From the NCBI RefSeq assembly GCF_000020025.1, contig NC_010628.1:3720001-3752000 (forward strand): a stretch of 32,000 nucleotides of DNA. Direction: 5' to 3'. Shown piece by piece: positions 1 to 26,200 of the stretch. Source of the stretch: Nostoc punctiforme PCC 73102 (GTDB lineage Bacteria > Cyanobacteriota > Cyanobacteriia > Cyanobacteriales > Nostocaceae). Under the pieces are notes generated by a model. It saw only the letters and a list, made by a program, of their open reading frames with translations. It did no database searches and had not been told where the DNA came from. Position 1 is the stretch's first letter. Each line of letters begins with the position of its first letter. The position numbers were made by a program, and so were the translations under genes.

Positions 1-324
1 CCTTCTGAATTATTTGAGCGTGTCTTTAAAGATTTACTACCTCAGTTACAACTTAATTGGCAGAAACGACTTAGGCGACCACTGCCAGATAGTGTTAAGT
101 TTGCATTGCATAATTTTGACCGAATTTGGATAGCTGATGGGTCAACGTTAGAAGCTTTATTCCGCAAGCTAAAAAGCCTGGAAAACTTGAAGGTAGGGCA
201 ATTAGCAGGTAAGATTTGCACAGTTATTGATTTGGTTAATCGTTTACCTGTCGAGGTTTAGTTTCACACTAACCCTGCTGCATCAGAGACTAATTTTGAG
301 GCTCAATTGCTAAATCTACTGCCC
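1..324 (+). pseudogene. Relic of an IS4/IS701-like DDE transposase gene (internal fragment entering from the left window edge)
   Basis: Frame +1 is open from nt 1: PSELFERVFKDLLPQLQLNWQKRLRRPLPDSVKFALHNFDRIWIADGSTLEALFRKLKSLENLKVGQLAGKICTVIDLVNRLPVEV. A TAG follows at 259-261, and the same frame then continues FHTNPAASETNFEAQLLNLLP. The IADGSTL...GK-x5-DL...LPVEV-[W]-xT layout matches my recollection of cyanobacterial IS4-type transposases, which have Trp (TGG) where the TAG sits. The expected downstream DDE core is missing after about nt 321. No terminal inverted repeat was seen. Confidence 0.55.
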
Positions 325-1824: not shown

Positions 1825-1829
1825 CCTTT

Positions 1830-1834
1830 CCTCC
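1830..1834 (-). promoter_or_regulatory. Shine-Dalgarno sequence (GGAGG) of the MFS gene
   Basis: The minus strand reads CAGGAGGAAAGG-ATG, with GGAGG 5 nt upstream of the ATG at 1824. Confidence 0.7.
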
Positions 1835-2117
1835 TGTTTTAAATAAATAGAGAGCAAATCTGAAAATGGAATCCCCAAAAAGCATTCCTCAAATTATGAT
1901 AAAACTCACATAAAAATTCCTAAAAAGCTTATTCTGTAGAACTTTTAATGAAGCCAATAATTGTAGAAAGTGTTTAATTTATGTAGGGTTGTGGTTTTTC
2001 AATGGGCAAAAATCTCTTAAGATAATTATGCACTACTTGTTCTAATTGATCGTGAAAATTTCATGTTAATTTTGCATATCATTGCATTTGGTAATTAGAG
2101 TAGTGCAATATCGAGCT

Positions 2118-11100: not shown

Positions 11101-14100
11101 CAAATCTCAGCTCGATGAGAAGGAGTAGATAAACTGGTGGCTTCTTTGCCAAGATAGCGCAGCAAGCCATAGCCAATCCCCTTGTGAGGAATCTGACGCA
11201 ACTGCTCTTTAATTGACTTAATAACATCCCCTTGATTATCTGTAACTCCCAGTTCTAACAACACCGGGAAAAGTGTTGTAAACCAACCGATAGTACGTGA
11301 TAAATCTACATCTGCAAAAATGTCTTCCCGCCCATGACCTTCCAACTCTAACAGCAGGGAGTTCGCACCAGCCCATTTACTCACAACCTGCACTAAAGCG
11401 GTTAACAATATATCATTAATTTGAGTGTTGTAAGCTTTTGGTACTTCTTGTAATAATGCTTGGGTTTGTGTATCATTCAATGATACTGATACAGTGGCAG
11501 CAGATGCAGCAGTGTTAGCACCTTTTTCAAAGTCCACTGGTAAACGCAACACTGGTGTTGTAGATTGTTTTTGCCAACAAGCTAATTCTTCTGATAAAGC
11601 TTCTGATTGTGCATATTCACTCAGTTGTTGCGCCCAATATTGAAAAGATGTTGTTTTGGCGGGTAGCTGAATCGTTTCACCACGGCTAAGTTGCTGATAA
11701 CCTGTCTGTAAGTCATCTAACAAAATCCGCCAAGAAACTCCATCAACCACTAAGTGGTGAATAATAATTAGTAATCGGCTTGGTTGGTCAATTCCCAGAG
11801 ACAATAAGGCAACGCGGATAATCGGTCCTGTTGATAGATTTAAGCTAGCCTGTAGTTGAGAAGCAGTAGCTTCAATAGCATTTTTTTGTTCTGTCTGTGT
11901 AACTGTAGATAAATCTATCTGCAAGAAAGGTACTATCTTATCCGGGACAGTGTGAGTTTGTTTCCAAGATTCACCTGGAATATAACGTAAACGCAATGTA
12001 TCGTGGTGTAGCAACAATTGCTGCAAAACGCGCTTTAAAATTTCTGGGTCTAAGTCTGATGGTACTGTCAACAGAACTGATTGGTTAAAATGGTGCGGCT
12101 CAGGCTGATTTTGCTCAAAAAACCAGTGTTGAATTGGTGTTAATGGCACTGTTCCTGTGACTAAACCTTGTTCTGCCTGGATGTTTTTAGTTGTGCCCGC
12201 TACTGCTGCTAACTCGGCAATGGTTTGATGCCCAAATAATTGTTTGGGACTTAAATTCAGTCCCGCCTGATTAGCTCTGGCAATAATTTGCAAACTGAGG
12301 ATGGAATCGCCGCCGAGTTCAAAGAAGTTATCGTGAATGCCTATTTGTTTGACTCCTAAAACCTCTGCCCAAATATCGACTAATATCTTTTCTGTAGGAG
12401 TTCTGGGGGCAATAAAGTTAACTTCTAGTTCAGGACGTGAATCAGGAGCAGGTAAGGCACGACGGTCTACTTTGCCGTTAGGCGTGAGAGGCAAGGCTTC
12501 TAAGAACACAAACGCTGAAGGCAACATATACTCAGGTAGTTTTGCCTTGAGGAATTGCCGTAAGTCGCTAATAGTTGGTGTTTGTTCTTGATTGCATACT
12601 AAATAAGCAACTAAGCGTTTACTTCGACTTACCTCGGCTGCGCTCGGCACGAGTCGCTCAGTACAAGTATCGCCGGGAATATCTTCTCTTGCTATGACTA
12701 CAGTTCCTTGCACATTTGGGTATTGGCTCAGTACTGCCTCTATCTCGCCCAATTCGATGCGGAAGCCGCGAATTTTTACTTGGTTGTCGATGCGTCCCAA
12801 ATACTCAATATTTCCATCAGCTGAATAACGCGCTAAATCCCCAGTTTTATACAGACGACTCCCGGATTTATCAAAGGGATTAGTAATAAATTTTTCTTGG
12901 GTCAAATCAGGTCGATTCAGGTAGCCTCGTGCTAAACCAACACCACCGATGTGCAACTCACCAGGTACACCAATTGGCACTGGTTGCAGATATTGGTCTA
13001 GTAAATAGGTTTGCACATTCTGTAGCGATCGCCCAATGAATATTTTTGACCCAAAACTAGACAAATTATACACTGTTGCTTCAACAGTGGTTTCTGTAGG
13101 CCCGTAAGCGTTGATTAATTGTGGGTATTGGCCAACATACTCCTGCCAAATTTTTAACTGTGCTGGTAGCGCTTGCTCTCCACCAATAATTACCAGGCGA
13201 ATAGAATTGGGTAATCTTAAATTGCTGTTAGCTAATTCTGAAGTTAGTTGATGCCAGTATGCTGTCGGCAAATCTAAAACTGTGAGTTCCCAATCTTGGC
13301 ATCTTTGCACAAATGTACTGATGGAAGTTAGCATTTCATCGGTGCGTAGCACTAGCGTTGCACCACAACTCAGACAGGGATAAATTTCTTCGGCGGCGAC
13401 ATCAAAACTAATCGATGCAAATTGTAAAATGCGTTGACAATAATTGATGCCATATTCAATTATTGCTGCTTGGATAAAATTTACTAAGGAATAATGTTGA
13501 ATCATTACTCCTTTGGGTTGACCTGTAGAACCTGATGTATAAATTACATAAGCAAGATTTGCTGATGTTACTTGGCTGATACAATTATCATTACTCAAAT
13601 GAGCATAGGCTTGCCAATCGCTATCTAAACTAACCACCTGCGCCCCATGTTCTGGTAGTCCCTTAACTAATTGCTGTTGCGTCACCAATACAGATACTTG
13701 GGAATCTGTCAACATATAAGCTAGTCGCTCTTGAGGATAATCAGGGTCAAGAGGTATATAAGCCCCACCCGCTTTGAGAATCCCCAACATTCCCACCACC
13801 ATGTCTAAGGAACGTTGCACACAAATACCAACTAACACCTCTGGGCCTACACCTAGACTTTGTAGGTAGTGTCCTAGTTGATTAGCTCGATTATTCAATT
13901 CGCGGTAGCTAAGTTTTTGGTCTGCAAACACTACTGCTACTGCATCTGGAGTCAGTTTTACTTGATTCTCAAATAACTCATGAATGCAAAGGTTTTCTGG
14001 ATAGTCTTTTTGCGTATCATTCCATTCCAACAATAATTTTTGCTCTTCTGCTGTTGTGAGCAAGGGCAATTGAGAAACGGGCATTTTTGGATAAGAAACA

Positions 14101-15494
14101 ATATTCTCTAATAAGGTTTGGAAATGACTCGCCATTCGCTCAATGGTAGTAGCATCAAACAAATCAGTATTATATTCCCAGGATGTTACTAATCCATTCC
14201 CAGCCTTGTGAATAGATAAAGTTAAATCAAACGCTGATGTTGAGCTTTCGACGGTAAATGAACTCAAAGTTAAGCCAGGAAGTTCCATTGCTGTCATTGG
14301 AGCATTATTCAGCACAAACATCACCTGAAATAGGGGTGTATGGCTTAAATCTCGTACTGGTTGTAATGCTTCTACCAACAGTTCAAACGGCAAATCTTGA
14401 TGAGCATAAGCCGCCGCCGTCACTTTTTGGACTTTCCTTAGTAATTCTTGAAAACTAGGATTACCTGATACATCAGTACGCAGGACTAAAGTGTTGATAA
14501 AAAAACCAATCAATCCTTCGATTTCACTACGATTACGGTTAGCAGTAGGGGAACCGACTAAAATATCCGTCTGTCCTGTATAACGGTAAAGTAAGATGTC
14601 AAACGCTGTTAACAGCGTCATAAACAACGTCACACCTTCTTGACGGCTCAGTAATTCCAGGGCTTGGGTTAATTCTAAAGGAAGTAAGAAGAATTGATGC
14701 GCTCCCCACATAGTTTGTACTTTCGGCCGGGGTCGGTCAGTAAGTAATTCTAATAAAGCTGGTGCTAGCGCGAGTTGTTTTCGCCAGTAATTGATTTGAG
14801 ATTCTTTAACATCACCTTGCAAAAATTGGCGCTGCCACACTGCAAAGTCAACATATTGAATGGCAAGTTCTGGTAAGGGTGAGACTTTACCTTGAGAAAA
14901 AGCAGTGTAAAGTTCTGCGGTTTCTTGGATAAAGATACCCATTGACCAGCCATCAGAAATAATGTGGTGCATACAGAACAGTAATACATGTTCTGTCTCG
15001 GATAGTGTCAACAATGAAGCCCGGATTAGAAATTCCCTAGCTAGGTCAAACTGGTACTTTGCTTCTGCTGTTGCCAGTTTTTGAGTTTCAATTTCTTGCT
15101 GATTTGCTGGCAAATGTTGTAAGTCTATTACTGTCATTGTCCAAGAATCTACAGGGCGGATAATTTGCACTGCTTGTCCATCTTGGGTAATAAAGTTAGC
15201 GCGTAAGGTTTCGTGGCGACGGATGATTTCGCTGAGGCTTTGTTGTAGCGCTACTGTATTTAGCTGACCTTGGAGGCGTACTGCGCCGGGTATATTATAA
15301 GCAGAACCGTTTGGCTCTAATTGGTCGAGGAACCATAAACGCTGTTGAGCAAAGGATAGGGGGAGAGATTTAAGTTCTTGATTGCGAAGAATTATTTGTT
15401 TAGGTGTAGCTTCTTGTTGTTGTTTTAGTTGCTTTAGTAGCAATTGTTGTTTCTGTGGAGAAAGATTTGCAAGTTGTTTTAATAAGTCACTCAT
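2118..15494 (-). CDS. Non-ribosomal peptide synthetase, three modules, terminating (C-A-T-E / C-A-T-E / C-A-T-TE), 4458 aa
   Basis: This is a single uninterrupted ORF. It has three HHxxxDG condensation motifs, two HHLxVDGVSW epimerase motifs, three SGSTGxPKG adenylation cores, three GG(D/H)S carrier motifs and a C-terminal GHSLGG thioesterase. The start is ATG at 15492-15494 and the stop is TAA at 2118-2120. Confidence 0.97.
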   Translation of the reverse strand: MSDLLKQLANLSPQKQQLLLKQLKQQQEATPKQIILRNQELKSLPLSFAQQRLWFLDQLEPNGSAYNIPGAVRLQGQLNTVALQQSLSEIIRRHETLRANFITQDGQAVQIIRPVDSWTMTVIDLQHLPANQQEIETQKLATAEAKYQFDLAREFLIRASLLTLSETEHVLLFCMHHIISDGWSMGIFIQETAELYTAFSQGKVSPLPELAIQYVDFAVWQRQFLQGDVKESQINYWRKQLALAPALLELLTDRPRPKVQTMWGAHQFFLLPLELTQALELLSRQEGVTLFMTLLTAFDILLYRYTGQTDILVGSPTANRNRSEIEGLIGFFINTLVLRTDVSGNPSFQELLRKVQKVTAAAYAHQDLPFELLVEALQPVRDLSHTPLFQVMFVLNNAPMTAMELPGLTLSSFTVESSTSAFDLTLSIHKAGNGLVTSWEYNTDLFDATTIERMASHFQTLLENIVSYPKMPVSQLPLLTTAEEQKLLLEWNDTQKDYPENLCIHELFENQVKLTPDAVAVVFADQKLSYRELNNRANQLGHYLQSLGVGPEVLVGICVQRSLDMVVGMLGILKAGGAYIPLDPDYPQERLAYMLTDSQVSVLVTQQQLVKGLPEHGAQVVSLDSDWQAYAHLSNDNCISQVTSANLAYVIYTSGSTGQPKGVMIQHYSLVNFIQAAIIEYGINYCQRILQFASISFDVAAEEIYPCLSCGATLVLRTDEMLTSISTFVQRCQDWELTVLDLPTAYWHQLTSELANSNLRLPNSIRLVIIGGEQALPAQLKIWQEYVGQYPQLINAYGPTETTVEATVYNLSSFGSKIFIGRSLQNVQTYLLDQYLQPVPIGVPGELHIGGVGLARGYLNRPDLTQEKFITNPFDKSGSRLYKTGDLARYSADGNIEYLGRIDNQVKIRGFRIELGEIEAVLSQYPNVQGTVVIAREDIPGDTCTERLVPSAAEVSRSKRLVAYLVCNQEQTPTISDLRQFLKAKLPEYMLPSAFVFLEALPLTPNGKVDRRALPAPDSRPELEVNFIAPRTPTEKILVDIWAEVLGVKQIGIHDNFFELGGDSILSLQIIARANQAGLNLSPKQLFGHQTIAELAAVAGTTKNIQAEQGLVTGTVPLTPIQHWFFEQNQPEPHHFNQSVLLTVPSDLDPEILKRVLQQLLLHHDTLRLRYIPGESWKQTHTVPDKIVPFLQIDLSTVTQTEQKNAIEATASQLQASLNLSTGPIIRVALLSLGIDQPSRLLIIIHHLVVDGVSWRILLDDLQTGYQQLSRGETIQLPAKTTSFQYWAQQLSEYAQSEALSEELACWQKQSTTPVLRLPVDFEKGANTAASAATVSVSLNDTQTQALLQEVPKAYNTQINDILLTALVQVVSKWAGANSLLLELEGHGREDIFADVDLSRTIGWFTTLFPVLLELGVTDNQGDVIKSIKEQLRQIPHKGIGYGLLRYLGKEATSLSTPSHRAEICFNYLGQFDQALSTSGSFQLATESAGASQSLYSDRSHILEINGLIVGGQLQINWTYSNNVHQHTTIENLAQEFIQALQALIAHCLSPEAGGYTPTDFPLAQLTQKQLDAELDKIKYQNLEDIYPLSPMQEGMLFHSVYEPESGVYFEQLSCTLKGNLELPAFEQAWQQVIARHSIFRTAFIWENHHQPLQVVYRQVKLPLEINDWRLLSPSEQQDKLEIFIKSEQQQGFQLSLAPLMRLNLIQLNADIYQFVWSHHHLLLDGWSLPLVLKEVFEFYEAICQGRNFNDKPSLPYRNYIAWLQKQDLEQAKVFWQEKLNGFSVPTPLTVEIPLSKRTNQSNYNTQQMQIGGDAIANIQTFTKQHKLTLNNLIQGAWALLLSRYSGQTDIVFGATVSGRPPELLGVESMVGLFINTLPVRITIPEDVEVLPWLKELQAQQVESEQYSYTPLVEIQGWSEIPGGMPLFESIVVFENYPVDASMQEQDSNLDIFDIHCIEQTNYPLTLLAAPGSELSISISYDTSRFEVATITRMLGHLQTIITAIATQPTQRLWKLPLLTKTEQNQLLKESENTQIKELPNQCIHELFELQVERSPDAIAIVYENEQLTYQELNTKANQLAHHLRSLGVSADILVGICVERSIEMLIGILGILKAGGAYVPLDPNYPQERLSFTLADSQVKVLITQQQLLPNLPENQAQILCIDSDWDFIAQSSANNPPRLTTPDNLAYIIYTSGSTGKPKGVLINHANIVRLFTATEEWFHFNQDDIWTLFHSFAFDFSVWEIWGALIKGGRLVIVPYWISRSPADFYQLLCKQQVTVLNQTPSAFGQLIQTEELIKTSESLALRWVIFGGEALELQSLKPWFERHGDKLPQLVNMYGITETTVHVTYRPITIADLSSNAGSVIGCPIPDLQVYILDQNRQLLPMGVPGEMYVGGAGLARGYLNREELTSKVFVAHPFNDDPNARLYKTGDLARYLGNGDLEYLGRIDNQVKIRGFRIELGEIEAAISQHPDVQATVVLARVDNPGDKRLVAYLVLNQQLAISVNELRQFLGSKLPQYMIPAAFVFLDVLPLTSNGKVDRSGLKAPESGRELENRFVAPRTPIEQMLSKIWAEVLGVEQIGIHDNFFELGGDSILSLQIIARANLAGVHLSPKQLFEHQTIALLAAVAGTTRKIQAQQGLVTGLVPLTPIQHWFFEQNQPEPHHYNQSVLLSVPSDLKPELLKRVLQQLLVHHDALRLRFTLKEESWQQVNADFEEAVSLSVVDLSTISPQEQLAALENIGGELQVQLNLSTGPLFKALLIKFGTNQSSRLLLIIHHLAVDGVSWRILLDDLQTGYQQLSRGEAIGLSTKTTSYQYWAQRLSEYAKSDALTEELIYWLNCSQKPVLPIPVDYVNGSNIVTSARLVSVSLNALETQALLQEVPRVYNTQINDILLTALAQVISKWTGSNLVRLNLEGHGREDIFDDVDLSRTIGWFTTIFPVLLELEATDNLGKTLKLVKEQLRHIPHKGIGYGVLRYLHPNKEITTQLQTSLPAQISFNYLGQFDQALDTSSGFKLADEPVGASQSLQSCRVHLLDIGGLISEGQLQIDWTYSSNIHQQSTVENLANEFIQTLQALIAHCLSPDAGGYTPSDFPLAKLTQAQLDVQLSKIKYQNLEDIYPLSPMQQGMLFHSLYAPESGAYFEQLSCTFKGNLKIENFEQAWQQVIDRHSVFRTGFIWENHHQPLQVVYRQVKLPLVIDDWQELSALEQQNKLNIFLESEARRGFQLSLAPLIRLNLIQLDADRYQFIWSHHHLLLDGWSLPLVLKEVFELYEAICEGKSFRFELIAAYKNYIAWLQQQDLAEAQRFWQQKLQGFTAPTPLMVDKPLTNRQQQSGYSEQEIHLSEPVTAALQAFAKNHQLTLNNLVQGAWSILLSRYSGETDVVFGATVSGRPPDLMGVESMVGLFINTLPVRVSVPAEMNLLPWLKELQAQQVECEQYSYTPLVEIQGWSEVPRSMPLFESIVVFENYPVDAAVQQQNGSLDVSNVQAGMEITDYPLTVTSVPGLRLLLSINYDSNRFDADAITRMLGHFQTLLEGMAANQEQQLWELPLLTASEQQQLLWEWNDTQKDYPQNQCVHELFAAQVKLTPDAVAVVFEDQQLTYRELNLRANQLAHYLQTLGVKPDVLVGICVERSLEMVVGILAIVKAGGAYVPLDPNYPSERLSYMLLDSQVSVLLTQQRLIEQLPQHQAKVVYLDSDWSLITQHSETNLVNHTTSKNLVYVIYTSGSTGQPKGVMVTHQNLVNAYLAWEDAYQLRSLCTSHLQMASFSFDVFSGDVVRSLCSGGKLVICPRELLLEPEKLYHLMQIQSIDCAEFVPAVLRNLIQYLERTEQDLSFMKLLIVGSDSWYIKDYQQFQRFISNETRLINSYGVTEATIDSSYFETAAVSLLSDGLVPIGEPFANTQIYILDQYQKPVPIGISGELYIGGSGVSCGYLNRPELTQEKFIANPFSQQESARLYKTGDLARYLSDGNIEYLERSDRQVKLRGFRIELGEIEAILSQHPQLQAVTVIVREDIKGDKRLVAYFVPYQEQTPTIIEMRSFLKSSLPDYMIPSAFVLLEFLPLTPNGKIDRRALPVPDINSLTIDTSFVPPLDIVEQQLTQIWSEILNIYPIGVKDDFFDLGGHSLLAVQLMAKIEQQFGKVLPLAVLFQNSTIENLGSILRQPMDTLSWSSLVPIQSNGYKRPFFCIPGAGGNSIYLYNLAHHLGRDQPFYALQALGLDGESTPHTSVEEMATHYIQAIQSVQTEGPYFLGGHSLGGMVAFEMACQLQKLGHKVALLALLDCGAPENIDNIDTVQQNVEIDDADWLNEIGFLFEQFYGKSLEISYEILQSLTPDTQLQYFQERLQMANLLPAGIGIKQLRGLMQVYKTNMQIVYTTQNIYENKITCFISSETENVSSENSESLEDTRLDWDNFSTKPLDIYVVPGNHATMLNEPNVQVLAEKLRTCIENAQVVN
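2121..2975 (-). other. Type I thioesterase (TE) release domain
   Basis: Contains PFFCIPGAGGNSIY and the nucleophile elbow GGHSLGG (Ser codon 2721-2723). The candidate Asp is in LLDCGAP and the candidate His in VPGNHATML. Confidence 0.9.
3010..3215 (-). other. Peptidyl carrier domain T3
   Basis: FFDLGGHSLLAVQLMAKI; Ser codon at 3111-3113. Confidence 0.9.
3546..3553. repeat. HIP1 palindrome GCGATCGC
   Basis: Exact 8-mer read in the sequence. Confidence 0.95.
4148..4155. repeat. HIP1 palindrome GCGATCGC
   Basis: Exact 8-mer read in the sequence. Confidence 0.95.
4850..6137 (-). other. Condensation domain C3, DCL-type
   Basis: Contains YPLSPMQQGMLFHS...YFEQ and SHHHLLLDGWS (HHH codons 5733-5741). 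It follows E2. Confidence 0.88.
6205..7582 (-). other. Epimerization domain E2
   Basis: Contains PLTPIQHWFFEQ, HHLAVDGVSWRILLDD (HH codons 7161-7166), EGHGRED and FNYLGQFD. Confidence 0.9.
7620..7820 (-). other. Peptidyl carrier domain T2 (epimerase-partner type)
   Basis: FFELGGDSILSLQIIARANLAGV; Ser codon at 7713-7715. Confidence 0.9.
7870..9365 (-). other. Adenylation domain A2, Thr-specific code
   Basis: The hand-read code is D-F-W-N-I-G-M-V-H-K (FDFSVWE, VLNQTPS, VIFGGEA, NMYGITETTVH; Lys codon 7881-7883). This is the canonical Thr signature. The junction PGD|KRLVAY at 8040/8041 is uninterrupted. Confidence 0.88.
9316..9323. repeat. HIP1 palindrome GCGATCGC
   Basis: Exact 8-mer. It encodes the AIA of PDAIAIVYE at the start of the A domain. 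Confidence 0.95.
9450..10745 (-). other. Condensation domain C2, DCL-type
   Basis: Contains YPLSPMQEGMLFHS...YFEQ and SHHHLLLDGWS (HHH codons 10332-10340). It directly follows an E domain. Confidence 0.88.
10045..10052. repeat. HIP1 palindrome GCGATCGC
   Basis: Exact 8-mer read in the sequence. Confidence 0.95.
10830..12170 (-). other. Epimerization domain E1
   Basis: Contains PLTPIQHWFFEQ, HHLVVDGVSWRILLDD (HH codons 11754-11759), EGHGRED and FNYLGQFD. Confidence 0.9.
12215..12410 (-). other. Peptidyl carrier domain T1 (epimerase-partner type)
   Basis: FFELGGDSILSLQIIARANQAGL; the phosphopantetheine Ser codon is at 12303-12305. Confidence 0.9.
12621..12668 (-). repeat. 48-nt composite mini-repeat inserted in frame (adds TCTERLVPSAAEVSRS): a 24-nt element with a related 24-nt element nested in it
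   Basis: The coding strand reads ACTTGTACTGAGCGA[CTCGTGCCGAGCGCAGCCGAGGTA]AGTCGAAGT. The outer 24 nt differ from the 27195-27218 copy at one position. The bracketed 24 nt align to the outer family at about 17 of 23 positions when shifted by one base. Confidence 0.75.
13025..13032. repeat. HIP1 palindrome GCGATCGC
   Basis: Exact 8-mer read in the sequence. Confidence 0.95.
14075..15365 (-). other. Condensation domain C1, LCL-type (accepts the PKS-bound intermediate)
   Basis: Contains LSFAQQRLWFLDQLEP and the active site CMHHIISDGWS (HH codons 14964-14969, residues 176-177). A Gln/Lys-rich 40-aa N-terminal linker precedes it. Boundaries are approximate. Confidence 0.85.
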
Positions 15495-15631: not shown

Positions 15632-18600
15632 TTATTCTGCCGCAAGTAGTTTTTGAACATCTTCATCAGAGAGTTTGGCTAAGTCTGCTAATGCCTGGGC
15701 TAATATCTCACTATCGGCATTGGCAATTTGAGCTTGAAAAATTGTCTCGGTTAAACTGATGATTTTAGGTGTTTCAAAAAAATCATTTACAGGTAAGTCT
15801 ATCAGGTATATCTCTCGTAATCGAGAAATGATTTGGATAGCTGTAAGAGAATTTCCTCCCAATTCAAAAAAGTTATCTTCTATGCCTATAGGTTCTATAC
15901 CTAGTAAATCTTGCCAAATATTAACAAGGCATTTTTCAATTTCATTGCTAGGAGCAATATAAGCATTTCGTAAGTTTGGTCTGGCATGATGGGTAATTGA
16001 AGATGCTGATTTTAAATCTTTCCGATTACCTAAGATTTTAAGTTGAATCCATTGGTCAATTCTAGCTTGCAGGTTCCCAGTAGAAACAACCCACTGATTA
16101 ACATCAGGTTGAGAGAAAATATATTGAAATATTTTGATTCCTTCTTGGGGATTTAGTGCTAACTCTGCTAAATTTCCGGTTATTTTTGGCTCTGAATCGA
16201 ATTGCCAAGCATCCCAGTTAATGCTAATCCAGGGTATAGAGTTGTTTGGGTTATATTTATGAGCGAAAATATCTAAAAAGTTATTTGCGGCAGAATAGGC
16301 GACAAATCCTAATCCTCCTAAAATTGATGATAAAGAAGAAAGCAAAAGACAAAAGTCTAGTTTTTGGTTTTGGAAAATCTTCTCTAATACTAAAAGTCCA
16401 TGAATTTTAGGTTGAAATTGCTGCAAACACTCTTGATAAGATGTTTGTTCTATAGCATGGAATGAATCAGCGATCGCAACGGCATGAATTACTCCATTGA
16501 CTCTACCATATTTCTCTTTAGCTAGGTCGATCGCTGCTTGCATTTGTTGCTGATTACTCACATCGGCATTGATGATTAAAACTTTGCCACCGAAAGATTC
16601 GATTTCTATTAGTTTTTGAATTTTTTGGCTAATACTATCAGTATGATCGTGATTAACTAACCATTGCTCCCAACTATCTTTTGCTGGGAAAGGAGAACGC
16701 CCAATCAAAATTAAATTACCCTGTACAGTTTTTGCTAAATGCTCTGCTAATAAAAGGCTAATTTTTCCTAAGCCACCTGTAATTAAATAGACTCCTTTTT
16801 CTCTTAATCTTGGTGTTCCTACTACAGATTCATCCCATTGTACTGGCTCGAAAGTTTGCACCAAACGATGATAACCACGATAAGCGATGACTTTATCTAA
16901 GTTATCACAAGTCAATTCGGCGACGATTTGCTCTACGAGTTTATCCTGAGAAGATTTAGGAATGATAATATCAATATTGCGGCAAGTAATATTTGGATAT
17001 TCTTGAGGAATAACTTTCACAGGGCCGAGTATAGTTGCCTTTGCTGGACACACTATGTCAACGCCTGTAACTTGTTGCACATTATTAGATACAACAGTAA
17101 TTTGTAATTCATCAATTACATGATGTTTTGCTAATGTTTGGGCGAGAAATAGTAAGCTGTAAAACCCTGTTTCCTGAGCTTTGTCAAATTCTGCAATTTC
17201 TAATTCTGGGGTATAGTTTTCGGTGACACTCCATAGATGAATAATTTTTTGAGGTTGCAAGCCCTGCCGATGAAGTTCTTGGAGCAAAGTATCATAATCT
17301 TGATGATTTTTTGGATTTAAGCTGTAGAGGCGCTCGCTAATCTGATGAAACTCTGAGCCAACCTTGAGAGTAATCACTGTCTCTCCCTCAAGTTCTAATT
17401 GTCTCACAATACCTAAACCCAAACCACAATCATCACTAAATACTAAAGTGCAACCAGGTGAACTGTGGCGGCGGCTTGGGGAAACTGTACGTTTCCAAGA
17501 AGGAATGTATAACCATTTGCTAATATCCAGTTTTTTGTTAGGTAGCAACTGAGGAGAACTAGGAATCTCTGCTGAGTTGGGAGCATCAAGCCAATAACGC
17601 TGACGTTCAAAAGGATAGGTTGGTAAAGCTAAACGCTGGCGGCGTTCATGAATGTACAAACCAGACCAATCTACCTCAACACCTGCTAACCAAAGTTGTC
17701 CCAAGGTGTTCTGTAAAAATGCGACATCGGAACTTTCATCTCGTGGATGGCGTAAGGAAGCCAGCGCTGTTATTCCAGTATTTTTGTCACTGTGTTGCTG
17801 AATAAAAGTACTTAATGTCCGACCAGGCCCCACTTCGAGAAAAACGCGATCACTCTCTTGCAATAATTCTTCCACACCTTGATTAAATAATACTGGCTGC
17901 CGCAGATGTTTTGTCCAATAGTTGGGGTCTGTTGCAACGCTTGGAGTAATCCAAGTACCAGTAACATTGGATATGTAGGGAATCTGCGGTGAGTGGAGTT
18001 GAATTTCAGCAATCTGCTCAGTCAAAGCTGCACAGATTGGCTCCATCATCGTTGAATGAAAAGCGTGAGATGTATGCAGAAGACGACAATCTACCCCTTT
18101 TTTGGTAAGCTGGTTTTGTAAAGTAGCGATCGCATCTGCAAGCCCAGAAACTACACATTGAGATGGTGCATTAATTGCTGCTAATGATAGTTGCTCGTTT
18201 AATAAGGGTTTAATTTCCGACTCTGGTAAGGGAACAGCCAGCATTGCCCCTTTAGGTAATTCCTGCATTAGCTTTGCACGGGTAATTACCAGTGTTAAGC
18301 CATCTTCTAAGGAAAACACACCTGCCAAACAAGCAGCCACATATTCGCCGATGCTATGACCAATCATTGCTTGTGGCTTGATACCCCAAGACATCCAAAG
18401 TTTTGCTAGGGCATATTCAATCACAAACAACGCAGGCTGAGTTAAATGAGTTTGTTGTAATTGTGCTTGGGCTGTTTCTTGAACGCTGGCTTCTGGATAT
18501 AATAACCTATGTAAATCAAGCCCAAAGTTGATTAGCAGTAATTGGGCGCAATGGTCAAATTCTGTTTGAAAAGTTGGCTCTACTTCGTAAAGTTCCCTTG

Positions 18601-20248
18601 CCATATTTACATATTGGGAACCTTGACCGGGAAACAAAAAAGTTACTGGTCTTTGGGTTTTTTCTTGGAAAGTTGTTAAGTACTGGCTCGGCTCTGATGC
18701 TTTGAGTCCAATTATTGCTGACTCTAAATTGCGACACACTAACATCCGCCGATGATTATAAGTTCTGCGACCTACTTGCAGGGTATGTACAACATCAGCT
18801 AAGTTAATATCTGGATGTTGTTGCAAATATTCAGCCAAATTTACGGTCATTGTTTCCAAAGCTGAATCAGTTTTGGCCGAAACAATCAACAGATGATATT
18901 TTCTCCCCTGCTCCTCTGCTCCCCTATCCTCCTGCTCTAACAAAGGGCTTTCTTCGAGAATCAGATGGGCGTTGGTTCCGCCAATTCCAAAGGAGCTAAC
19001 ACCCGACCGCCGGGGAGTATTAACAGAATCCCACTTTGATAACTTAGTATTAACGTAAAAGGGACTGTTGGCAAAGTCAATTTTAGAATTAGGTTGCTCA
19101 AAGTTCAAACTAGCTGGAATCACTTTGTGTTGCAGTGCCAGAGTCGTTTTAATCAACCCCGCAACCCCCGCAGCTGCATCTAAATGTCCCATATTTGTTT
19201 TGAGGGAACCAATCGCACAGAAACCTTTTTTAGCAGTACTAGTACGGAAAGCCTGAGTTAAAGCTTCTAGTTCAATAGGGTCGCCCAAAGGTGTAGCTGT
19301 GCCATGTGCTTCAATGTAGGTGATTGTCTCAGCTGCAATCTCAGATGTAGCTTGAGCCGCAAGAATCACATTTGCTTGCCCTTCTACTCCCGGAGCAGTG
19401 TAACCAATTTTTTGCGCTCCATCATTATTGATTGCCGAGCCTTTAATTACAGCATAAATGCGATCGCCATCTTTGATCGCATTTTCTAAACGTTTGAGTA
19501 CCACAATCCCCAAACCATTACCGCCAACTGCTCCTTTAGCTTTGGCATCAAAAGTCCGACAATGACCATCAACGGAAACAATGCCCCCTTCTTGATAAAT
19601 ATAGCCACTCATTTGTGGTAATCGAATAGAAACACCACCAGCCAGAGCCATTTCACAATCGCCACTTAACAACCCTTGACAAGCTAAGTGAACTGCCACT
19701 AAAGAGGAAGAGCAAGCAGTTTGAACAGTAATACTTGCACCAGAAAGGTCTAATTTATATGAAACAAGGGTGCTGAGATAATCACCATTGGCAATTAAAA
19801 TCGGTGAAACTCCCACAGCTTCGATTAAGTCACTGTTTGGATAGATGTTATCTAGTAAATAGTCATTTTTACCGACGGCAGCGTAAACACCAATAGGACT
19901 TTTATAAGTTTGTGGATTGTAGGCAGCGTTTTCTAAAGCTTCATCAGCACACTCTAAAAACAGACGGTGTTGGGGGTTTAAGATTTCTGCTTCTCTGGGG
20001 GTATAGCCAAAGAAAGCTGCGTCAAACATCTCAATGTCATTTAATATCGCCCCAGCTTTGACATAGTTGGATTGACTTAATAAAGCTGGTTCAATCCCCG
20101 CAGCCAGCAATTCTTCATCGGAGAAAAATTTTACAGATTCGACACCATCTTGCAGATTACGCCAAAATTCTTCAATATTTTTAGCTCCGGGAAACCGACC
20201 GGCTAGGCCAATAATGGCTACTTCTAAACCTGTTTTTTCACTACTCAT
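15632..20248 (-). CDS. Type I modular polyketide synthase, one module (KS-AT-KR-ACP), 1538 aa
   Basis: Contains the KS triad motifs TACSSSL, EAHGTATPLGDPIE and NMGHLDAAAG. The AT has GHSIGE and HAFHS. The KR has TGGLGKIS and YSAANNFLD. The carrier has LGGNSL. The ATG at 20246-20248 overlaps the upstream stop. Confidence 0.97.
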   Translation of the reverse strand: MSSEKTGLEVAIIGLAGRFPGAKNIEEFWRNLQDGVESVKFFSDEELLAAGIEPALLSQSNYVKAGAILNDIEMFDAAFFGYTPREAEILNPQHRLFLECADEALENAAYNPQTYKSPIGVYAAVGKNDYLLDNIYPNSDLIEAVGVSPILIANGDYLSTLVSYKLDLSGASITVQTACSSSLVAVHLACQGLLSGDCEMALAGGVSIRLPQMSGYIYQEGGIVSVDGHCRTFDAKAKGAVGGNGLGIVVLKRLENAIKDGDRIYAVIKGSAINNDGAQKIGYTAPGVEGQANVILAAQATSEIAAETITYIEAHGTATPLGDPIELEALTQAFRTSTAKKGFCAIGSLKTNMGHLDAAAGVAGLIKTTLALQHKVIPASLNFEQPNSKIDFANSPFYVNTKLSKWDSVNTPRRSGVSSFGIGGTNAHLILEESPLLEQEDRGAEEQGRKYHLLIVSAKTDSALETMTVNLAEYLQQHPDINLADVVHTLQVGRRTYNHRRMLVCRNLESAIIGLKASEPSQYLTTFQEKTQRPVTFLFPGQGSQYVNMARELYEVEPTFQTEFDHCAQLLLINFGLDLHRLLYPEASVQETAQAQLQQTHLTQPALFVIEYALAKLWMSWGIKPQAMIGHSIGEYVAACLAGVFSLEDGLTLVITRAKLMQELPKGAMLAVPLPESEIKPLLNEQLSLAAINAPSQCVVSGLADAIATLQNQLTKKGVDCRLLHTSHAFHSTMMEPICAALTEQIAEIQLHSPQIPYISNVTGTWITPSVATDPNYWTKHLRQPVLFNQGVEELLQESDRVFLEVGPGRTLSTFIQQHSDKNTGITALASLRHPRDESSDVAFLQNTLGQLWLAGVEVDWSGLYIHERRQRLALPTYPFERQRYWLDAPNSAEIPSSPQLLPNKKLDISKWLYIPSWKRTVSPSRRHSSPGCTLVFSDDCGLGLGIVRQLELEGETVITLKVGSEFHQISERLYSLNPKNHQDYDTLLQELHRQGLQPQKIIHLWSVTENYTPELEIAEFDKAQETGFYSLLFLAQTLAKHHVIDELQITVVSNNVQQVTGVDIVCPAKATILGPVKVIPQEYPNITCRNIDIIIPKSSQDKLVEQIVAELTCDNLDKVIAYRGYHRLVQTFEPVQWDESVVGTPRLREKGVYLITGGLGKISLLLAEHLAKTVQGNLILIGRSPFPAKDSWEQWLVNHDHTDSISQKIQKLIEIESFGGKVLIINADVSNQQQMQAAIDLAKEKYGRVNGVIHAVAIADSFHAIEQTSYQECLQQFQPKIHGLLVLEKIFQNQKLDFCLLLSSLSSILGGLGFVAYSAANNFLDIFAHKYNPNNSIPWISINWDAWQFDSEPKITGNLAELALNPQEGIKIFQYIFSQPDVNQWVVSTGNLQARIDQWIQLKILGNRKDLKSASSITHHARPNLRNAYIAPSNEIEKCLVNIWQDLLGIEPIGIEDNFFELGGNSLTAIQIISRLREIYLIDLPVNDFFETPKIISLTETIFQAQIANADSEILAQALADLAKLSDEDVQKLLAAE
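15735..15955 (-). other. Acyl carrier domain (PCP-like signature)
   Basis: FFELGGNSLTAIQIISRL; Ser codon at 15848-15850. An acidic C-terminal tail follows (SDEDVQKLLAAE). Confidence 0.88.
16210..17535 (-). other. Ketoreductase (KR) domain with N-terminal structural subdomain
   Basis: The Rossmann motif YLITGGLGKIS is at about 16766-16792. The catalytic Tyr in YSAANNFLD has its codon at 16295-16297. No DH (HxxxGxxxxP), ER or methyltransferase motif occurs between the AT and KR. I could not assign the stereochemical type: the LDD position reads ADS and there is no A-type Trp. Confidence 0.85.
16470..16477. repeat. HIP1 palindrome GCGATCGC
   Basis: Exact 8-mer read in the sequence. Confidence 0.95.
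17760..18646 (-). other. Acyltransferase (AT) domain, malonyl-CoA type
   Basis: Contains FLFPGQGSQY and GHSIGE (Ser codon 18353-18355). The HAFH motif at 18056-18067 is the malonyl-specific signature, as opposed to YASH for methylmalonyl. Confidence 0.85.
18126..18133. repeat. HIP1 palindrome GCGATCGC
   Basis: Exact 8-mer read in the sequence. Confidence 0.95.
18953..20233 (-). other. Ketosynthase (KS) domain
   Basis: The active-site Cys codon is at 19712-19714 (TACSSSL, residue 179). Both His motifs are present, and the domain ends at GGTNAHLILEE. Confidence 0.92.
19460..19467. repeat. HIP1 palindrome GCGATCGC
   Basis: Exact 8-mer read in the sequence. Confidence 0.95.
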
Positions 20249-23200
20249 TGTTTGCCCCCTTTGATGAACGTGCTAACCGTTGTTTGAGACGGTTTCTCCC
20301 GGCTTTGATATCTGTAATTTGATTATTTTTTTTCTCTATATCGGATGCAGAGTCAGTTTTTTCGGAACTTAAATATTTGGCAAGAGTTGAAATAGTGGGA
20401 TATTTAAACATTTCCAGTAAGGAAATATCTTGGTTGAGAAACTCCTGCAACTTTTGAGTTAGCTTCACCATCAGTAAGGAGTGACCACCAAGGTCAAAAA
20501 AATTGTCATCTATCCCTACTTTTTCTAATTGCAACACCTCTTGCCAAATGTTAGCGATCGCTTGTTCAATTTTGCTTCGTGGCGCTACATAACTGGCAGC
20601 AAATTGCGCTGATAAATCAGGTGCAGGTAAGGAGCGACGGTCTATTTTGCCATTTGGTGTCAGAGGAAATTGCTCTAAGAACACAAAGGCCGCAGGAATC
20701 ATGTAATTAGGTAACTGTCTCTGCAAGAAACTGCGTAAATCACTAATACTATGTGTCTGATTTAGTTCAAATATTATATAAGCTACCAAACGGCGTTGGC
20801 AAAGCCCACCGCAGGCATCATCGCTTATATCCTCTCTCGCCAACACTACTACTTCTCGAATGGCAGGATGCTGTAACAGTGCAGTTTCTATTTCTCCCAA
20901 CTCAATGCGGAAGCCCCGAATTTTGACTTGATTATCAATCCGTGCTAAATATTCGATATTTCCATCAGGTAAATAACGCCCTAAATCGCCAGTTTTATAC
21001 AACTTTGAATTGTTAAAGGGATTGGCAATAAATTTCTCTTGTGTCAACTCTAAGCGATTGAGATAACCTTGTGCTAATCCATCACCACCTATATATAATT
21101 CACCAGGAACACCAATAGGTACTGGCTGTAAGTTTTGATCTAATAAATAGATTTGAGTATTAGAAATTGGCTGACCAATAGGGATAGTTGTAGCTGTTGC
21201 AGGTACATCTTCGATTAAAAACCAAGAAGAAAAAGTGGTGCTTTCTGTCGGGCCATAAACATGCAGTAAATGCTGTGGCGCACCATTTTGCAATACCTCT
21301 TTTACCCATCTGGGATCAACAGCCTCGCCACCAAATAAGAGATATCGCAGGGTGTTAAATGCCTGGGGTACAAAACTAGCTAACTGATTAAATAAGGCTG
21401 TGGTTAGGAATAAAACACTAATTTCCTGTTCACGGATATATGCAGCAAATTCTTGGGGTGAGAGGGCTATATTGTGCGTCACACCTACTAGCCTTGCACC
21501 ATGCAAGAGTGCGCCCCATATTTCAAAGGTAGCAGCATCGAAAGACGCATTTGCAGCTTGGGCAATACAATCGTTAGCATCTAACTGTATATAGTTGGTG
21601 TTAAACACTAGGCGATTAACTGCCCGATGGGGAACAGCTACCCCTTTGGGTTTGCCTGTAGAACCGGAAGTATAGATAACATAAGCTAGTTTGTCAGCTG
21701 TAACTTCGCTATGCAGATTTGCCGTACTTTCTCGGTTAATAATATCCCAACCAGTATCTAAACACACCACTGGCTGACCGTATTCTGGCAGCTTTTCAAC
21801 TAATCGCTGTTGCGTCAGCAGCACAGGCACTTGTGAATCTGCCAACATCAAACTTAAGCGTTCTTGGGGATAATCCGGGTCAAGTGGCACATACGCACCA
21901 CCTGCTTTGAGAATCCCCAGCAGTCCCACTAGCATTTCTAAAGAACGTTCGACAAAAATGCCCACCAGCACTTCTGTACCAACACCTAAAGTTCTCAAGT
22001 AATGAGCTAATTGATTAGCTCGACTATTTAACTCTTGGTAAGTAATTTGCTGGCTTCCAAACACTGCCGCTACTAGATCCGGGTTACGTTCCGCCTGGGC
22101 TGTAAACAACTCATGAATGCACTGATTTTGCGGATATTCTGTTTGAGTATTATTCCATTCATTTAATAACTGGTGTTGCTCATTCACTGTGAGCAGAGGT
22201 AGTTGGGAAACTGGTTGTTCTGGATTTGTTACAATACTCTCCAGTAAAGTTTGGAAATGCCCAATCATCCGAGCGATCGTCAATGTATCAAATAAATCAG
22301 TGTTATATTCCCACGCTCCTACTAGTCCCTGGTCAGTGTTCTCAAAAGCTAAAGTCAAATCAAACTTGGCTGTTAAGCTTTCTGTTGTTAATGAACTCAA
22401 AGTTAAACCAGGCAATTCTATATCCGATGTCGGAGTATTCTGAAACACAAACATGACTTGGAATAGCGGTGTATGGCTTAAGTCTCGTTCTGGCTGTAAT
22501 GCCTCTACTAGCAGTTCAAACGGCAAGTCTTGATGAGTATGAGCTTCTAGAGACACTTCCCGAACTCGCTCTAATAATTGCCGGAAACTGGGATTACCGG
22601 AAACATCTGTGCGAAAAACTAAAGTGTTAACGAAGAAACCGATTAATCCTTCTATTTCACTGTAATTCCGATTGGCGATCGCAGAACCGACTAAAATATC
22701 TGTCTGTCCTGTATAGCGGTGAAGTAAGGTATCAAAAGCTGCCAACAATGTCATAAACAGGGTGACACCTTCTTGCCGACTTAATAAGCTTAGTGCTTGG
22801 CTTAACTCCTCAGAAAGTGAGAAAGATTGAGTCGTCCCTCGAAAGGTTTGCACTGCTGGTCTGGGCCGGTCAGTAGGTAGTTCTAATAAAGCTGGTGCGC
22901 CTGCTAGTTGTTCTCGCCAGTAATTAATTTGAGACTCTTTAACCTCACCTTGCAACCACTGTCTTTGCCACACTGCAAAGTCAGCGTATTGGATAGCGAG
23001 TTCTGGTAAGGATGAGAGATGACCTTGAGAAAAAGCGGTGTAAAGTTCTGCTACCTCTTGGACAAAAACACCCATTGACCAACCATCAGAGACAATGTGG
23101 TGCATACAGAACAGCAATATGTTTTCTGTCTCTGATATCGCTAGTAAAGTAGTCCTAATTAACGATTCATTTACTAAGTCAAAGGGCTGCTGGGCTGCTA

Positions 23201-26200
23201 CTGTTGCCAATTGTTGAATTTCAATTTCTCGTTCATCTGCTGGCAAATCCTGTAAGTCTATCACTGTCATTGTCCAAGAACTTACAGGGCGGATAATTTG
23301 CACCGCCTCCCCTGCTTGAGTGATGAAGTTGGTACGTAAAGCTTCATGACGACGGATGATTTCACTGAGGCTTTGTTCTAGCGCTGCAACATTCAGTTGA
23401 CCTTGAAAACTTACTGCGCCTGGGATGTTATATGCAGCACTATTTGGATCTAACTGGTTGAGGAACCATAAACGCTGTTGAGCAAATGAAAGGGGGATGT
23501 TTTCATTTCTAGCTACAGGTTGCAGAGGTGGTATTAATAATTCTGATGAGTTTCGTTGATATTGCTGAATATATTCAGCTAAATTGGCGATCGTCGCAGC
23601 TTCAAATAGACTACGTAAAGGTAACTCTATTTTAAAGGTAGTTCTGATTCGGGAAACAAGTTGAGTTGCCAATAACGAATGTCCGCCCAATTCAAAAAAG
23701 TTATCGTAAACACCTATTTGTTCTACTCGCAGCACATCAGCCCAAATAGGTGCTAATATTTCTTCGATGGGTGTGCGTGGGGCAACAAAATTAACTTCTA
23801 ATTCCCGAAGTGTTTCTGGCAGTGGTAAGGCGCGACGGTCTACTTTGCCATTAGGAGTTAATGGGAGAGTTTCTAAGAATACAAAAGCCGAAGGAATCAT
23901 GTACTCAGGCAACTTTGAACCCAGAAATTGCCGGAGTTCATTTATTGTTGGTGTTGGTTCTTGATTGAGTGCAAGGTAAGCGACTAAGCATTTATCACCT
24001 GGAGTATCTTCACGGGCAATTACTGTTACCTGTAATATTGCTGGGTGTTGGCTCAGTATTGCCTCTATCTCTCCCAACTCAATACGGAAGCCGCGAATTT
24101 TAACTTGGTGATCTATCCGTCCTAAATACTCGATATTCCCATCAGGTAAATAACGCGCTAAATCCCCAGTTTTATATAATTTTGAATTTTGAATTTTGAA
24201 TTTTGAATTATTAAAAGGGTTGGGGATGAATTTTTCTTGTGTCAAATCAGGGCGGTTAAGATAGCCTTGAGCTACACCAGCACCACCGATATGCAACTCA
24301 CCTGGAACACCAATCGGCACAGGTTGGAGATAACTATCAAGGATATAAGCTTGAGTATTAGGAATGGGACGACCAATAGGGGGTTTATCGGAGCGCTCGC
24401 CATTGCCACATTCTGCTACAGTTGCACAGACAGTAGTTTCCGTTGGTCCATAAGCGTTGAAGAAACGTCGCCCAACTGACCATTGCTTAATCAAGTCAGG
24501 AGCGCAAGCTTCACCCGCCACAATGATGTTCTGTAATGCCGGAAGTTCTGCTTGTGGTAGAACTGCTAACGCCGATGGTGGCAAGGTAATGTGGGTAATC
24601 CCATAGTCGCGTAATAATTCAATTAATTCCAAACCAGGTAAAAGAGACTCTTTAGTTCCTAAATACAGCCTTGCACCTGAACCCAATGCCATCACCACTT
24701 CCCAAATTGATGCGTCAAAGCTAAAAGAAGCAAATTGCAGAATCCGACTTGAGGGCAGTAAATCAAACAAATCAATCTGGGCTTGAGCTAAGTTGCATAA
24801 CCCGGAATGTTTCACCATCACACCCTTGGGTTTGCCTGTTGAGCCGGAGGTGTAAATCACATTTACTAAATCCGAGTCTTTCACCCCACTAATTGGATTT
24901 TCTTGGCTGTGTTGGATAATTTGTTCCCAACTTTCATCAATGACTACCAGTGTGGCTTGATGCTCAGGTAATCTTGCAACTAATCGGTGTTGTGTCAGCA
25001 GCAGCGACACTTGAGAATCTGACAAGATATGAGATATTCGTTCTTGGGGATACTCCGGGTCAATCGGTACATAAGCACCACCCGCTTTCAGAATCCCTAA
25101 TAATCCTACTAGCATTTCTAAAGAACGTTCGACACACAGACCAACTAACACATCAACTCTTACACCTAGAGTCCTTAAATAATGGGCTAAGTGGTTCGCT
25201 TGTTGATTTAGTTCTCGGTAAGTGAGTTGTTGATTTTCAAACACCAATGCCACTGCATCGGGGGTGCGTTCCACCTGCATTTCAAAAAACTGATGAATGC
25301 AGATGTCTTGGAGATAGTTTCTTTGCGTATCATTCCATTCTTCTAGCAGCTGGTATTGCTCTTGTGTAGATAAGCCGGAACATAACTCGTAGCTTTCCAG
25401 TGGCTCCTTCACCATTGCATCCAGGGTTTTTACATAATAGCTACTAATAGCTTTTATTTGTTCTCTACACAACTCAGAGGCATCGTAAGCAAAACCAACT
25501 TCTAATTCAGACGAGCCGGGATTCAGCTTAAAGTTAACTGCCAAAGTAAAGTTTGTTTCTTCAACAGACTTTAATCCTAGTAACTCTACATTATTATTGA
25601 GTTCTATGACTGTTTGATATACATGGAAATGCACGAAATTAAAGATAATCTCAAACAAAGGTTGACCACCCAGAATCCTCTGTAATTGCCCTAGAGGATA
25701 TCGGCGAAAAGGTAGCAGCTCCACCTCTGCATCAAATACTTGTCTTATCAAGTCTACCCAAGTGCCTCCAGACAGGTTTAGACGAAATGGCAAGCTATTG
25801 AGGAAGAGTCCCAAAACTTGCTCACTATCAGTCTGTTCTGGTCTTCCATTGGCGACTAAACCTGTTAATACATCAACTTGGTTGCTAATTATACTTAAAA
25901 CTCGCACATGTGCAGCCAATAGCACACTTTTGAGGGGAACACCTATAAATTGAGCTAGCTTTTGCAAGCCGTTGTAAAGATCCGCAGATAAAGGCACATC
26001 TTGTGTGCCAACTTGCCGGACTTTGGCTTTTTGTTGAGAAGAATACCAACGAGGCACCATAGTTATAGTGCATTCTTTCAACTTTTCTGTCCAATAGTAT
26101 TCATGCTCCTTCGAGCCTAAAGCTTGTCGTTCCAAAGCCACAAAATTGCGGAAGGAACTTGAGGGGGATGGCAAAAGCGGTTGGGCTTTTTGGTTTACAA

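Follow-up and report, generated by a model that had tools for sequence, protein, structure and literature searches.

The accepted route to 3-hydroxy-4-amino units in peptides begins with a nonribosomal peptide synthetase (NRPS) module that loads an amino acid, which a polyketide synthase (PKS) extends with malonyl before a ketoreductase (KR) domain reduces the resulting ketone; didemnin (Ile to isostatine), burkholdac, hapalosin, thalassospiramide and nosperin are named examples (PMC12081711). Pepstatin is built differently, by a KR-less PKS with modules used iteratively in trans and a discrete F420H2-dependent oxidoreductase that acts after assembly (PMC12081711). In the hapalosin pathway, the relevant pair is HapD (C-A-NM-PCP, for Phe) and HapE (KS-AT-KR-ACP-TE, for malonyl) (PMC4558948). 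Here, we analyzed a 32,000-nt stretch of the Nostoc punctiforme PCC 73102 genome (NC_010628.1, positions 3,720,001-3,752,000; ‘the window’ in the following; GC content about 0.41) that covers the greater part of an orphan NRPS-PKS hybrid assembly line of this Nostocales cyanobacterium. In it, a single-module PKS lies between two NRPSs, termed N1 and N2. With a probability of roughly 0.75, the terminal Ile module of N1, the PKS and N2 build an isostatine-type 4-amino-3-hydroxy residue into a peptide. The predicted unit is Ile-derived 4-amino-3-hydroxy-5-methylheptanoate (residue mass about 157.11 Da), with the Val homologue as a minor variant. An earlier note on this DNA had left the choice between statine, isostatine and the Val homologue; the specificity code discussed below favors the isostatine type, leaves the Val homologue a minor role and does not support statine proper.

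The amino acid entering the PKS would be selected by the last adenylation (A) domain of N1. The ten specificity residues of each of the six complete A domains were extracted through alignment to GrsA, with a reference sequence that gave back the canonical GrsA code DAWTIAAICK, which validated the register. For the last N1 domain, the alignment returned DAFFLGVTFK, identical to the aliphatic code read previously. This code occurs in Planktothrix cyanopeptolin synthetases at positions filled by Ile and, to a minor extent, Val (PMC2533009) and is shared by the domains that activate L-Ile in the suomilide, aeruginosin and pseudospumigin pathways (PMC13122637), so that characterized cyanobacterial pathways point to Ile rather than to a non-aliphatic substrate. 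Neither an epimerization (E) domain nor an N-methyltransferase insertion was found in this module by Pfam and motif analysis. Its thiolation (T) domain, with an LGGHSL core, is the last domain of N1 and directly precedes the ketosynthase (KS) of the PKS. The KS retains the Cys-His-His triad of condensing enzymes, and it is followed by an acyltransferase (AT), a KR and a carrier domain (Table 1). Both the malonyl-type assignment of the AT, originally made from its HAFH motif, and the PCP-like character of the carrier held up, as HAFH occurs together with GHSIGE and Arg657 and the LGGNSL motif lies within a PP-binding domain.

In the proposed route, a peptidyl chain ending in L-Ile on the last N1 module would be handed to the KS of the PKS, a gene whose start codon overlaps the N1 stop codon (ATGA), making the two genes a translationally coupled pair in our scheme. 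The AT would load malonyl, and decarboxylative Claisen condensation would furnish the peptidyl-4-amino-5-methyl-3-oxoheptanoyl thioester on the PCP-like carrier. The in-module KR would then reduce C3 with NADPH, and the 3-hydroxyl would be kept, as neither a dehydratase (DH) nor an enoylreductase (ER) is present. Finally, the LCL-type condensation (C) domain opening N2 would join the acyl group to Arg. The class of this C domain was assessed by sequence identity: identity is 73% with the LCL domain of the Ile module (the third C domain of N1) and 19-29% with the DCL and E domains, with values of 26-29% for the three DCL domains. Its best Protein Data Bank (PDB) matches were the LCL domains of Txo2 (1e-112), Txo1 and TycC6. 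All three DCL domains in the window carry HHLLLDGW and each follows one of the three E domains. The earlier note had placed the entire unit, condensation domain included, between positions 15632 and 22125; this interval consists of the PKS gene and the A-T end of N1, and the LCL domain, although real, lies outside it. While we directly observed the order of the domains, their intact catalytic motifs, the specificity codes, purifying selection and a core that is also conserved in a relative, the chemistry, its stereochemical course and the existence of a product are what we infer from the sequence.

Because the 3-hydroxyl would depend on the KR, we assessed this domain in depth. Pfam resolved a structural subdomain (PF21394, aa 934-1111) and a catalytic subdomain (aa 1152-1349), and PDB sequence alignments spanned aa ~913-1384 as one KR didomain. 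The motifs TGGLGKIS, GRS and ADV are present along with K1281, S1305, Y1318 and N1322; the catalytic Tyr noted before is, therefore, accompanied by its Lys, Ser and Asn partners. HMMER placed the catalytic Lys/Ser/Tyr/Asn and the NADPH-site residues in register with solved KRs (StsA, 6ULW; MlnE, 5D2E; PksJ, 5KTK and 4J1Q). Across an alignment of 30 sequences with the same architecture, the invariant columns included K423, S446, S447, Y460, N464, TGGLG, R326 (of GRS) and D371 (of ADV). When an AlphaFold model of aa 859-1420 was searched with Foldseek, all top PDB matches were KR didomains (6ULW, 4e-30; 5D2E, 5e-28; then Amph, Ery and Tyl); template modeling (TM) scores of the model to KR structures were low (0.35-0.5), with poor relative placement of the subdomains, and the comparison serves for fold assignment only. 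Codon comparison with the ortholog from Calothrix brevissima NIES-22 gave ratios of nonsynonymous to synonymous substitution rates (dN/dS) of 0.070 for the KS, 0.142 for the AT, 0.155 for the catalytic subdomain of the KR and 0.18-0.30 for linkers. The PKS domains, KR included, are under purifying selection.

A separate observation concerns the affinities of this KR. The closest solved relative of this domain from a cis-AT PKS was a KR found within a depsipeptide module of an NRPS (StsA, 6ULW, E 1.5e-42), followed by the trans-AT KRs of MlnE and PksJ, while classical cis-AT KRs (Ery, Tyl and Amph) matched only at 1e-9 to 1e-6.

Retention of the hydroxyl was examined at two levels. Within the PKS, neither Pfam (E ≤ 0.01) nor NCBIfam, PDB sequence or fold searches detected a DH, ER or methyltransferase (MT) domain, in agreement with the domain composition suggested initially. 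The KR prefix (NCBIfam) starts 53 residues downstream of the AT, at aa 911, and the only about 50 residues between AT and KR leave no room for a DH. A degenerate DH at this position was considered and rejected, as Pfam and NCBIfam gave no DH match there and the fold search of aa 859-1420 returned KR didomains only. At the level of the locus, the window has no open reading frames (ORFs) of at least 60 aa outside or between the synthetase genes except for a major facilitator superfamily (MFS) transporter gene and a transposase-like fragment, and no gene for a DH, ER, MT, acyltransferase or discrete F420-type reductase was found in it. A DH or ER acting in trans, raised in the earlier note as a possible complication, is accordingly absent from the window, at whose edges our coverage ends.

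These data also bear on an alternative in which the 3-hydroxyl is formed but not left free, being consumed by thioesterase (TE)-mediated macrolactonization, acylated or methylated on oxygen, or eliminated by an enzyme encoded beyond the window, so that no free pharmacophore results. The assembly line does end in a TE, our view of the upstream side stops at position 32000, and dolaisoleuine, a unit of dolastatin 10 and a cyanobacterial relative, has an O-methylated 3-hydroxyl. Against it stand the lack of MT, DH and acyltransferase genes in the window and the fact that the 24.6 kb around the NIES-22 PKS carries only three called synthetase genes. We regard this outcome as unlikely.

Several points weigh against an isostatine-type unit. 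The last Gly of the GGxGxxG nucleotide-binding motif of the KR is replaced by Ser (TGGLGKIS, window 16757-16780, minus strand), where the family consensus is GGLGGIG. The structural model of the KR region is only of medium quality, with a predicted local distance difference test (pLDDT) score of 69.6 and a predicted TM (pTM) score of 0.48, although pLDDT reaches about 90 in the Rossmann core. The absence of trans-acting tailoring enzymes applies to the 32 kb analyzed. No matching compound and no description of the cluster were found in the literature on Nostoc and cyanobacterial statine-type units. Lastly, the KR-dependent route itself has been rationalized from gene clusters and never experimentally verified (PMC12081711).

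The Gly-to-Ser exchange is the basis of a second alternative, a KR that is dead or very weak, in which case the unit would stay a 4-amino-3-oxo acid as in andrimid, the product of a KR-less NRPS-PKS pair. Consistent with this view, TGGLGKIS departs from the consensus TGGLGGIG and the region of the LDD motif varies among orthologs (ADS here; TNA, TNS and VDS elsewhere). However, Ser is kept at the last motif position in four of the five closest orthologs (and in none of the other top homologs listed), for which reason the exchange looks tolerated rather than a sign of decay. NADP-binding Rossmann folds often have Ala here, and Ser is likewise small. The catalytic Lys/Ser/Tyr/Asn set is intact and invariant, as are the NADPH-site residues of GRS and ADV, and dN/dS of the KR is close to that of the AT and below that of linkers. 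Save for this one Gly, no catalytic or NADPH-binding residue is missing after alignment, which speaks to the concern raised at the outset that the KR might be inactive. Given the invariant residues, the Ser shared with orthologs and the dN/dS value, the KR is very probably active, and we consider a nonfunctional domain very unlikely.

To place the isostatine-type assembly line in a wider context, we compared it to related loci. The PKS is 77-79% identical to proteins of Nostoc sp. MG11, C. brevissima NIES-22 and two metagenomes. The NIES-22 locus (AP018207.1 8324304-8348887) is syntenic, with a 3,684-aa NRPS, the PKS and a 4,440-aa NRPS, and it preserves the order A(DAFFLGVT-K), PKS, C(LCL)-A(DVEDIGAVEK, Arg)-T-E-C-A(DFWNIGMVHK, Thr)-T-E. 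Its first modules differ, starting with Ala-E instead of Thr/Dhb-Phe (Dhb, dehydrobutyrine). As judged from these codes, the Ile-PKS-Arg-Thr core is common to the window and NIES-22. In MG11, the PKS (78% identity) resides on a 31,128-bp contig, the upstream part of which encodes Ala-E and Leu modules and then a last A domain starting with DAFFLG that is cut by the locus end. Comparison of the three clusters suggests that modules were exchanged around a core that stayed conserved. Among the best 120 matches to the PKS, 51 share its architecture, that is, a single module of the same length and domain set; 45 of these have HAFH in the AT and 49 a PCP-like GG[HDN]S carrier. With such a share of the best matches, this KS-AT-KR-carrier module type is common in Nostocales.

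Conservation is also relevant to the question of whether the assembly line bypasses the PKS module or the cluster is silent, either of which would mean that no such unit is formed in nature by this cluster. Most NRPS and PKS clusters of N. punctiforme-type strains lack a known product and several are silent in standard culture (PMC9324945, PMC5088731). Yet every domain is intact and evolves under purifying selection, 17 independent assemblies carry an identical PKS, and the Ile-PKS-Arg-Thr core persists across genera, which renders this scenario highly improbable.

The stereochemistry at C3 was approached through the residues that distinguish KR classes. The LDD position reads HAVAIADS, and the diagnostic Asp of the MlnE (5D2E) and PksJ (4J1Q) KRs aligns with Ser1262; the B-type LDD motif with its diagnostic Asp is not present in this KR. 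The A-type Trp about eight residues before the catalytic Tyr is also not present, the position being occupied by Leu (SSILGGLGFVAY). Judged by these motifs, the KR fits neither textbook class, and the earlier note, which had read ADS and refrained from a stereochemical assignment, reached the same point. The middle Asp of ADS was considered as the diagnostic residue and rejected, as HMMER alignments set the diagnostic Asp opposite Ser and orthologs carry Asn at the middle position. LDD was found in none of the 35 same-architecture homologs with a readable region; the other 16 were unreadable there. Applying the ‘no Asp’ rule for trans-AT-like KRs would suggest, with low confidence, A-type reduction to an L-hydroxyl, which in a statine-type unit is named 3R because the nitrogen at C4 inverts the substituent ranking at C3 compared with that in a plain acyl chain. 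Again with low confidence, the predicted 3R center would be the epimer of the 3S center of pepstatin; lacking the diagnostic Asp, the KR does not imply a pepstatin-like 3S configuration. C4 and C5 should keep the L-Ile configuration, with retention at C4 expected because the Ile module has no E domain.

Table 1 Features of the hybrid NRPS-PKS locus in the N. punctiforme window, with substrates as predicted from A domain codes.
Feature	Window coordinates	Strand	Composition, motifs or code	Basis
Upstream NRPS, C-terminal end (651 aa, runs off the window)	30044..31999	-	..A-T-E	Pfam; E-type HHLAVDGV motif
NRPS N1 (3,242 aa)	20241..29969	-	C(DCL)-A(Thr)-T-C(modAA-like)-A(Phe)-T-C(LCL)-A(Ile)-T	ORF; Pfam (3 C, 3 A, 3 T); motifs; A codes; C classes
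N1, first A domain			DFWNIGMVHK, Thr	Same code as OciA-A2 (PMC2533009)
N1, second A domain			DAWTIAAVCK, Phe	9/10 identical to GrsA
N1, LCL C domain of Ile module	22164..23504	-	HHIVSDGW; C1 motif LSFAQQRLWFL	Pfam (aa 2156-2602); motifs
N1, A domain of Ile module	20631..22154	-	DAFFLGVTFK, Ile (minor Val); no N-MT insertion	GrsA alignment
N1, PCP of Ile module	20325..20576	-	LGGHSL	Pfam; motifs
PKS (1,538 aa), single-module type I	15632..20248	-	KS-AT-KR-carrier	ORF; Pfam; motifs
PKS, KS domain (aa 9-384)	19097..20224	-	Cys179 (TACSSS), His315 (EAHGT), His355 (NMGHL)	Pfam (E 2.8e-68 and 5.7e-42)
PKS, AT domain, malonyl-type (aa 536-858)	17675..18643	-	GHSIGE (aa 630), Arg657, HAFH (aa 728)	Pfam (E 4.5e-56); FabD model TIGR00128 (E 1.2e-54)
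PKS, complete KR didomain (aa 911-1349)	16202..17518	-		PF21394 (E 5.2e-25); PF08659 (E 1.8e-39); NF047870 KR prefix (aa 911-992); PDB alignments; fold search
PKS, carrier (aa 1441-1502)	15743..15928	-	PCP-like core LGGNSL (Ser1467)	Pfam PP-binding (E 5.6e-14)
NRPS N2 (4,458 aa)	2118..15494	-	C(LCL)-A(Arg)-T-E-C(DCL)-A(Thr)-T-E-C(DCL)-A(Orn)-T-TE	Pfam; motifs; A codes
N2, post-PKS LCL C domain (first domain)	14031..15368	-	HHIISDGW, LSFAQQRLWFL	Pfam; identity comparison; PDB matches
N2, first A domain			DVEDIGAVEK, Arg	Arg-only ApnA-A1 genotype b (PMC5311044)
N2, second A domain			DFWNIGMVHK, Thr	Same code as first A domain of N1
N2, third A domain			DVGEIGSIDK, Orn	PMC3992020
MFS transporter, 3′ of TE, probable exporter	490..1878	-		PF07690 (E 7.3e-30)

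The wider assembly line is organized as five co-directional ORFs, all on the minus strand, that nearly fill the window, with transcription running from the end of an upstream NRPS through N1, the PKS and N2 to the MFS transporter. The E domain of the upstream NRPS is 60-63% identical to both E domains of N2. PKS and N2 are separated by a 137-nt spacer in which no terminator-like site was found. At this junction, the C-terminus of the PKS (..ILAQALADLAKLSDEDVQKLLAAE, 15632-15740) and the N-terminus of N2 (MSDLLKQLANLSPQKQQLLLKQLKQQQEAT, 15405-15494) are helical, charged tails that look like matching docking tails as at cyanobacterial PKS/NRPS junctions. At the opposite end of the cluster, a partial ORF of 86 aa (window 1-261, plus strand) had no Pfam match and resembled an IS4-family transposase only weakly, below the threshold (NF033592, E 0.011); this fragment may mark the downstream cluster boundary.

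Combining the codes with domain order, the predicted core of the product is ...D-Xaa-(Thr, probably dehydrated to Dhb)-Phe-[Ile-CH(OH)-CH2-CO]-D-Arg-D-Thr-Orn-TE. Dehydration of the Thr from the first N1 module is considered probable because a modAA-like C domain comes after this module, by analogy with LxaC3 in scytocyclamide biosynthesis, for which the same reaction has been proposed (PMC8471579). This second C domain of N1 (window 25370-26720, minus strand, HHAILDGW at aa 1234) shares only 19-29% identity with the window's LCL, DCL and E domains, and its best PDB matches were McyA (8JBR, E 1e-149) and the dehydrating C_modAA domain of AmbE (7R9X, E 2e-69). The T domain of the same first module (aa 1027, window 26874-26891, minus strand) reads LGGDSI, yet it precedes the modAA-like C domain and not an E domain; elsewhere in the window, this core is found only in carriers before E domains (upstream NRPS and the first and second T domains of N2). 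In the last N2 module (window 2157-4799, minus strand), the Orn code stands directly before the TE, and the MFS exporter gene (490-1878) is next. A C-terminal Orn would allow release by self-lactamization or macrocyclization, and Orn together with D-Arg predicts a strongly cationic product.

As the architecture and logic are textbook and the module type is abundant in Nostocales, the value of the locus lies in natural product discovery, as a genome-mining lead, and not in new biology. If the assignment is correct, a widely studied type of cyanobacterium has a silent or overlooked pathway to an isostatine-type peptide, enlarging the short list of natural peptides with a 4-amino-3-hydroxy acid (pepstatin, didemnins, grassystatins and hapalosin). 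Being amenable to genetic manipulation, the strain could allow the KR-dependent statine route to be tested experimentally for the first time, and its cis-AT, single-protein KS-AT-KR-carrier module would be well suited to biochemical study of this route and its stereochemical outcome. More tentatively, the Ile-derived 4-amino-3-hydroxy acid-D-Arg-D-Thr core of the window and NIES-22, followed by Orn in the window, could define an undescribed family of cationic cyanobacterial peptides in which a hydroxyethylene-like unit beside D-Arg acts as a protease transition-state mimic, with a C3 configuration perhaps unlike that of pepstatin because the KR lacks the B-type Asp; we hold this to be possible but rather doubtful. 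A role of the product as an aspartic protease pharmacophore or inhibitor is speculation and would fail if the hydroxyl is 3R, O-modified or used in lactonization.

Among characterized systems, HapD/HapE from Subsection V cyanobacteria is the closest cyanobacterial cis-AT analogue. In both cases, a cis-AT NRPS module is paired with a single KS-AT(malonyl)-KR-ACP module that lacks DH and ER and converts the carbonyl of the aminoacyl group to a 3-hydroxyl. HapE, however, ends in a TE, which makes its unit terminal, and the amino acid is N-methyl-Phe instead of Ile, whereas the PCP-like carrier in the window passes its unit to an LCL domain for three further NRPS modules. The isostatine module of didemnin, compared by description only, resembles the window in that an NRPS module activates Ile, but it comes from a proteobacterium (Tistrella). 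Didemnin isostatine is 3S,4R,5S, that is, epimerized at C4; with no E domain after the Ile module of the window, 4S is expected here. Burkholdac/thailandepsin, likewise compared by description, shares the NRPS-PKS(KR)-NRPS sandwich that sets a γ-amino-β-hydroxy acid within a peptide. The same sandwich is found in bleomycin BlmIX/BlmVIII, where BlmVIII also has a C-MT; these are Burkholderia and actinobacterial systems, respectively. In pepstatin biosynthesis (PepB/PepC/PepI), an aliphatic amino acid is similarly extended with malonyl by KS-AT-ACP, but without a KR and with reduction after release, while the window has an in-module KR and no such reductase. At the sequence level, the locus shows every feature of the KR-dependent statine-type class and none of the pepstatin class.

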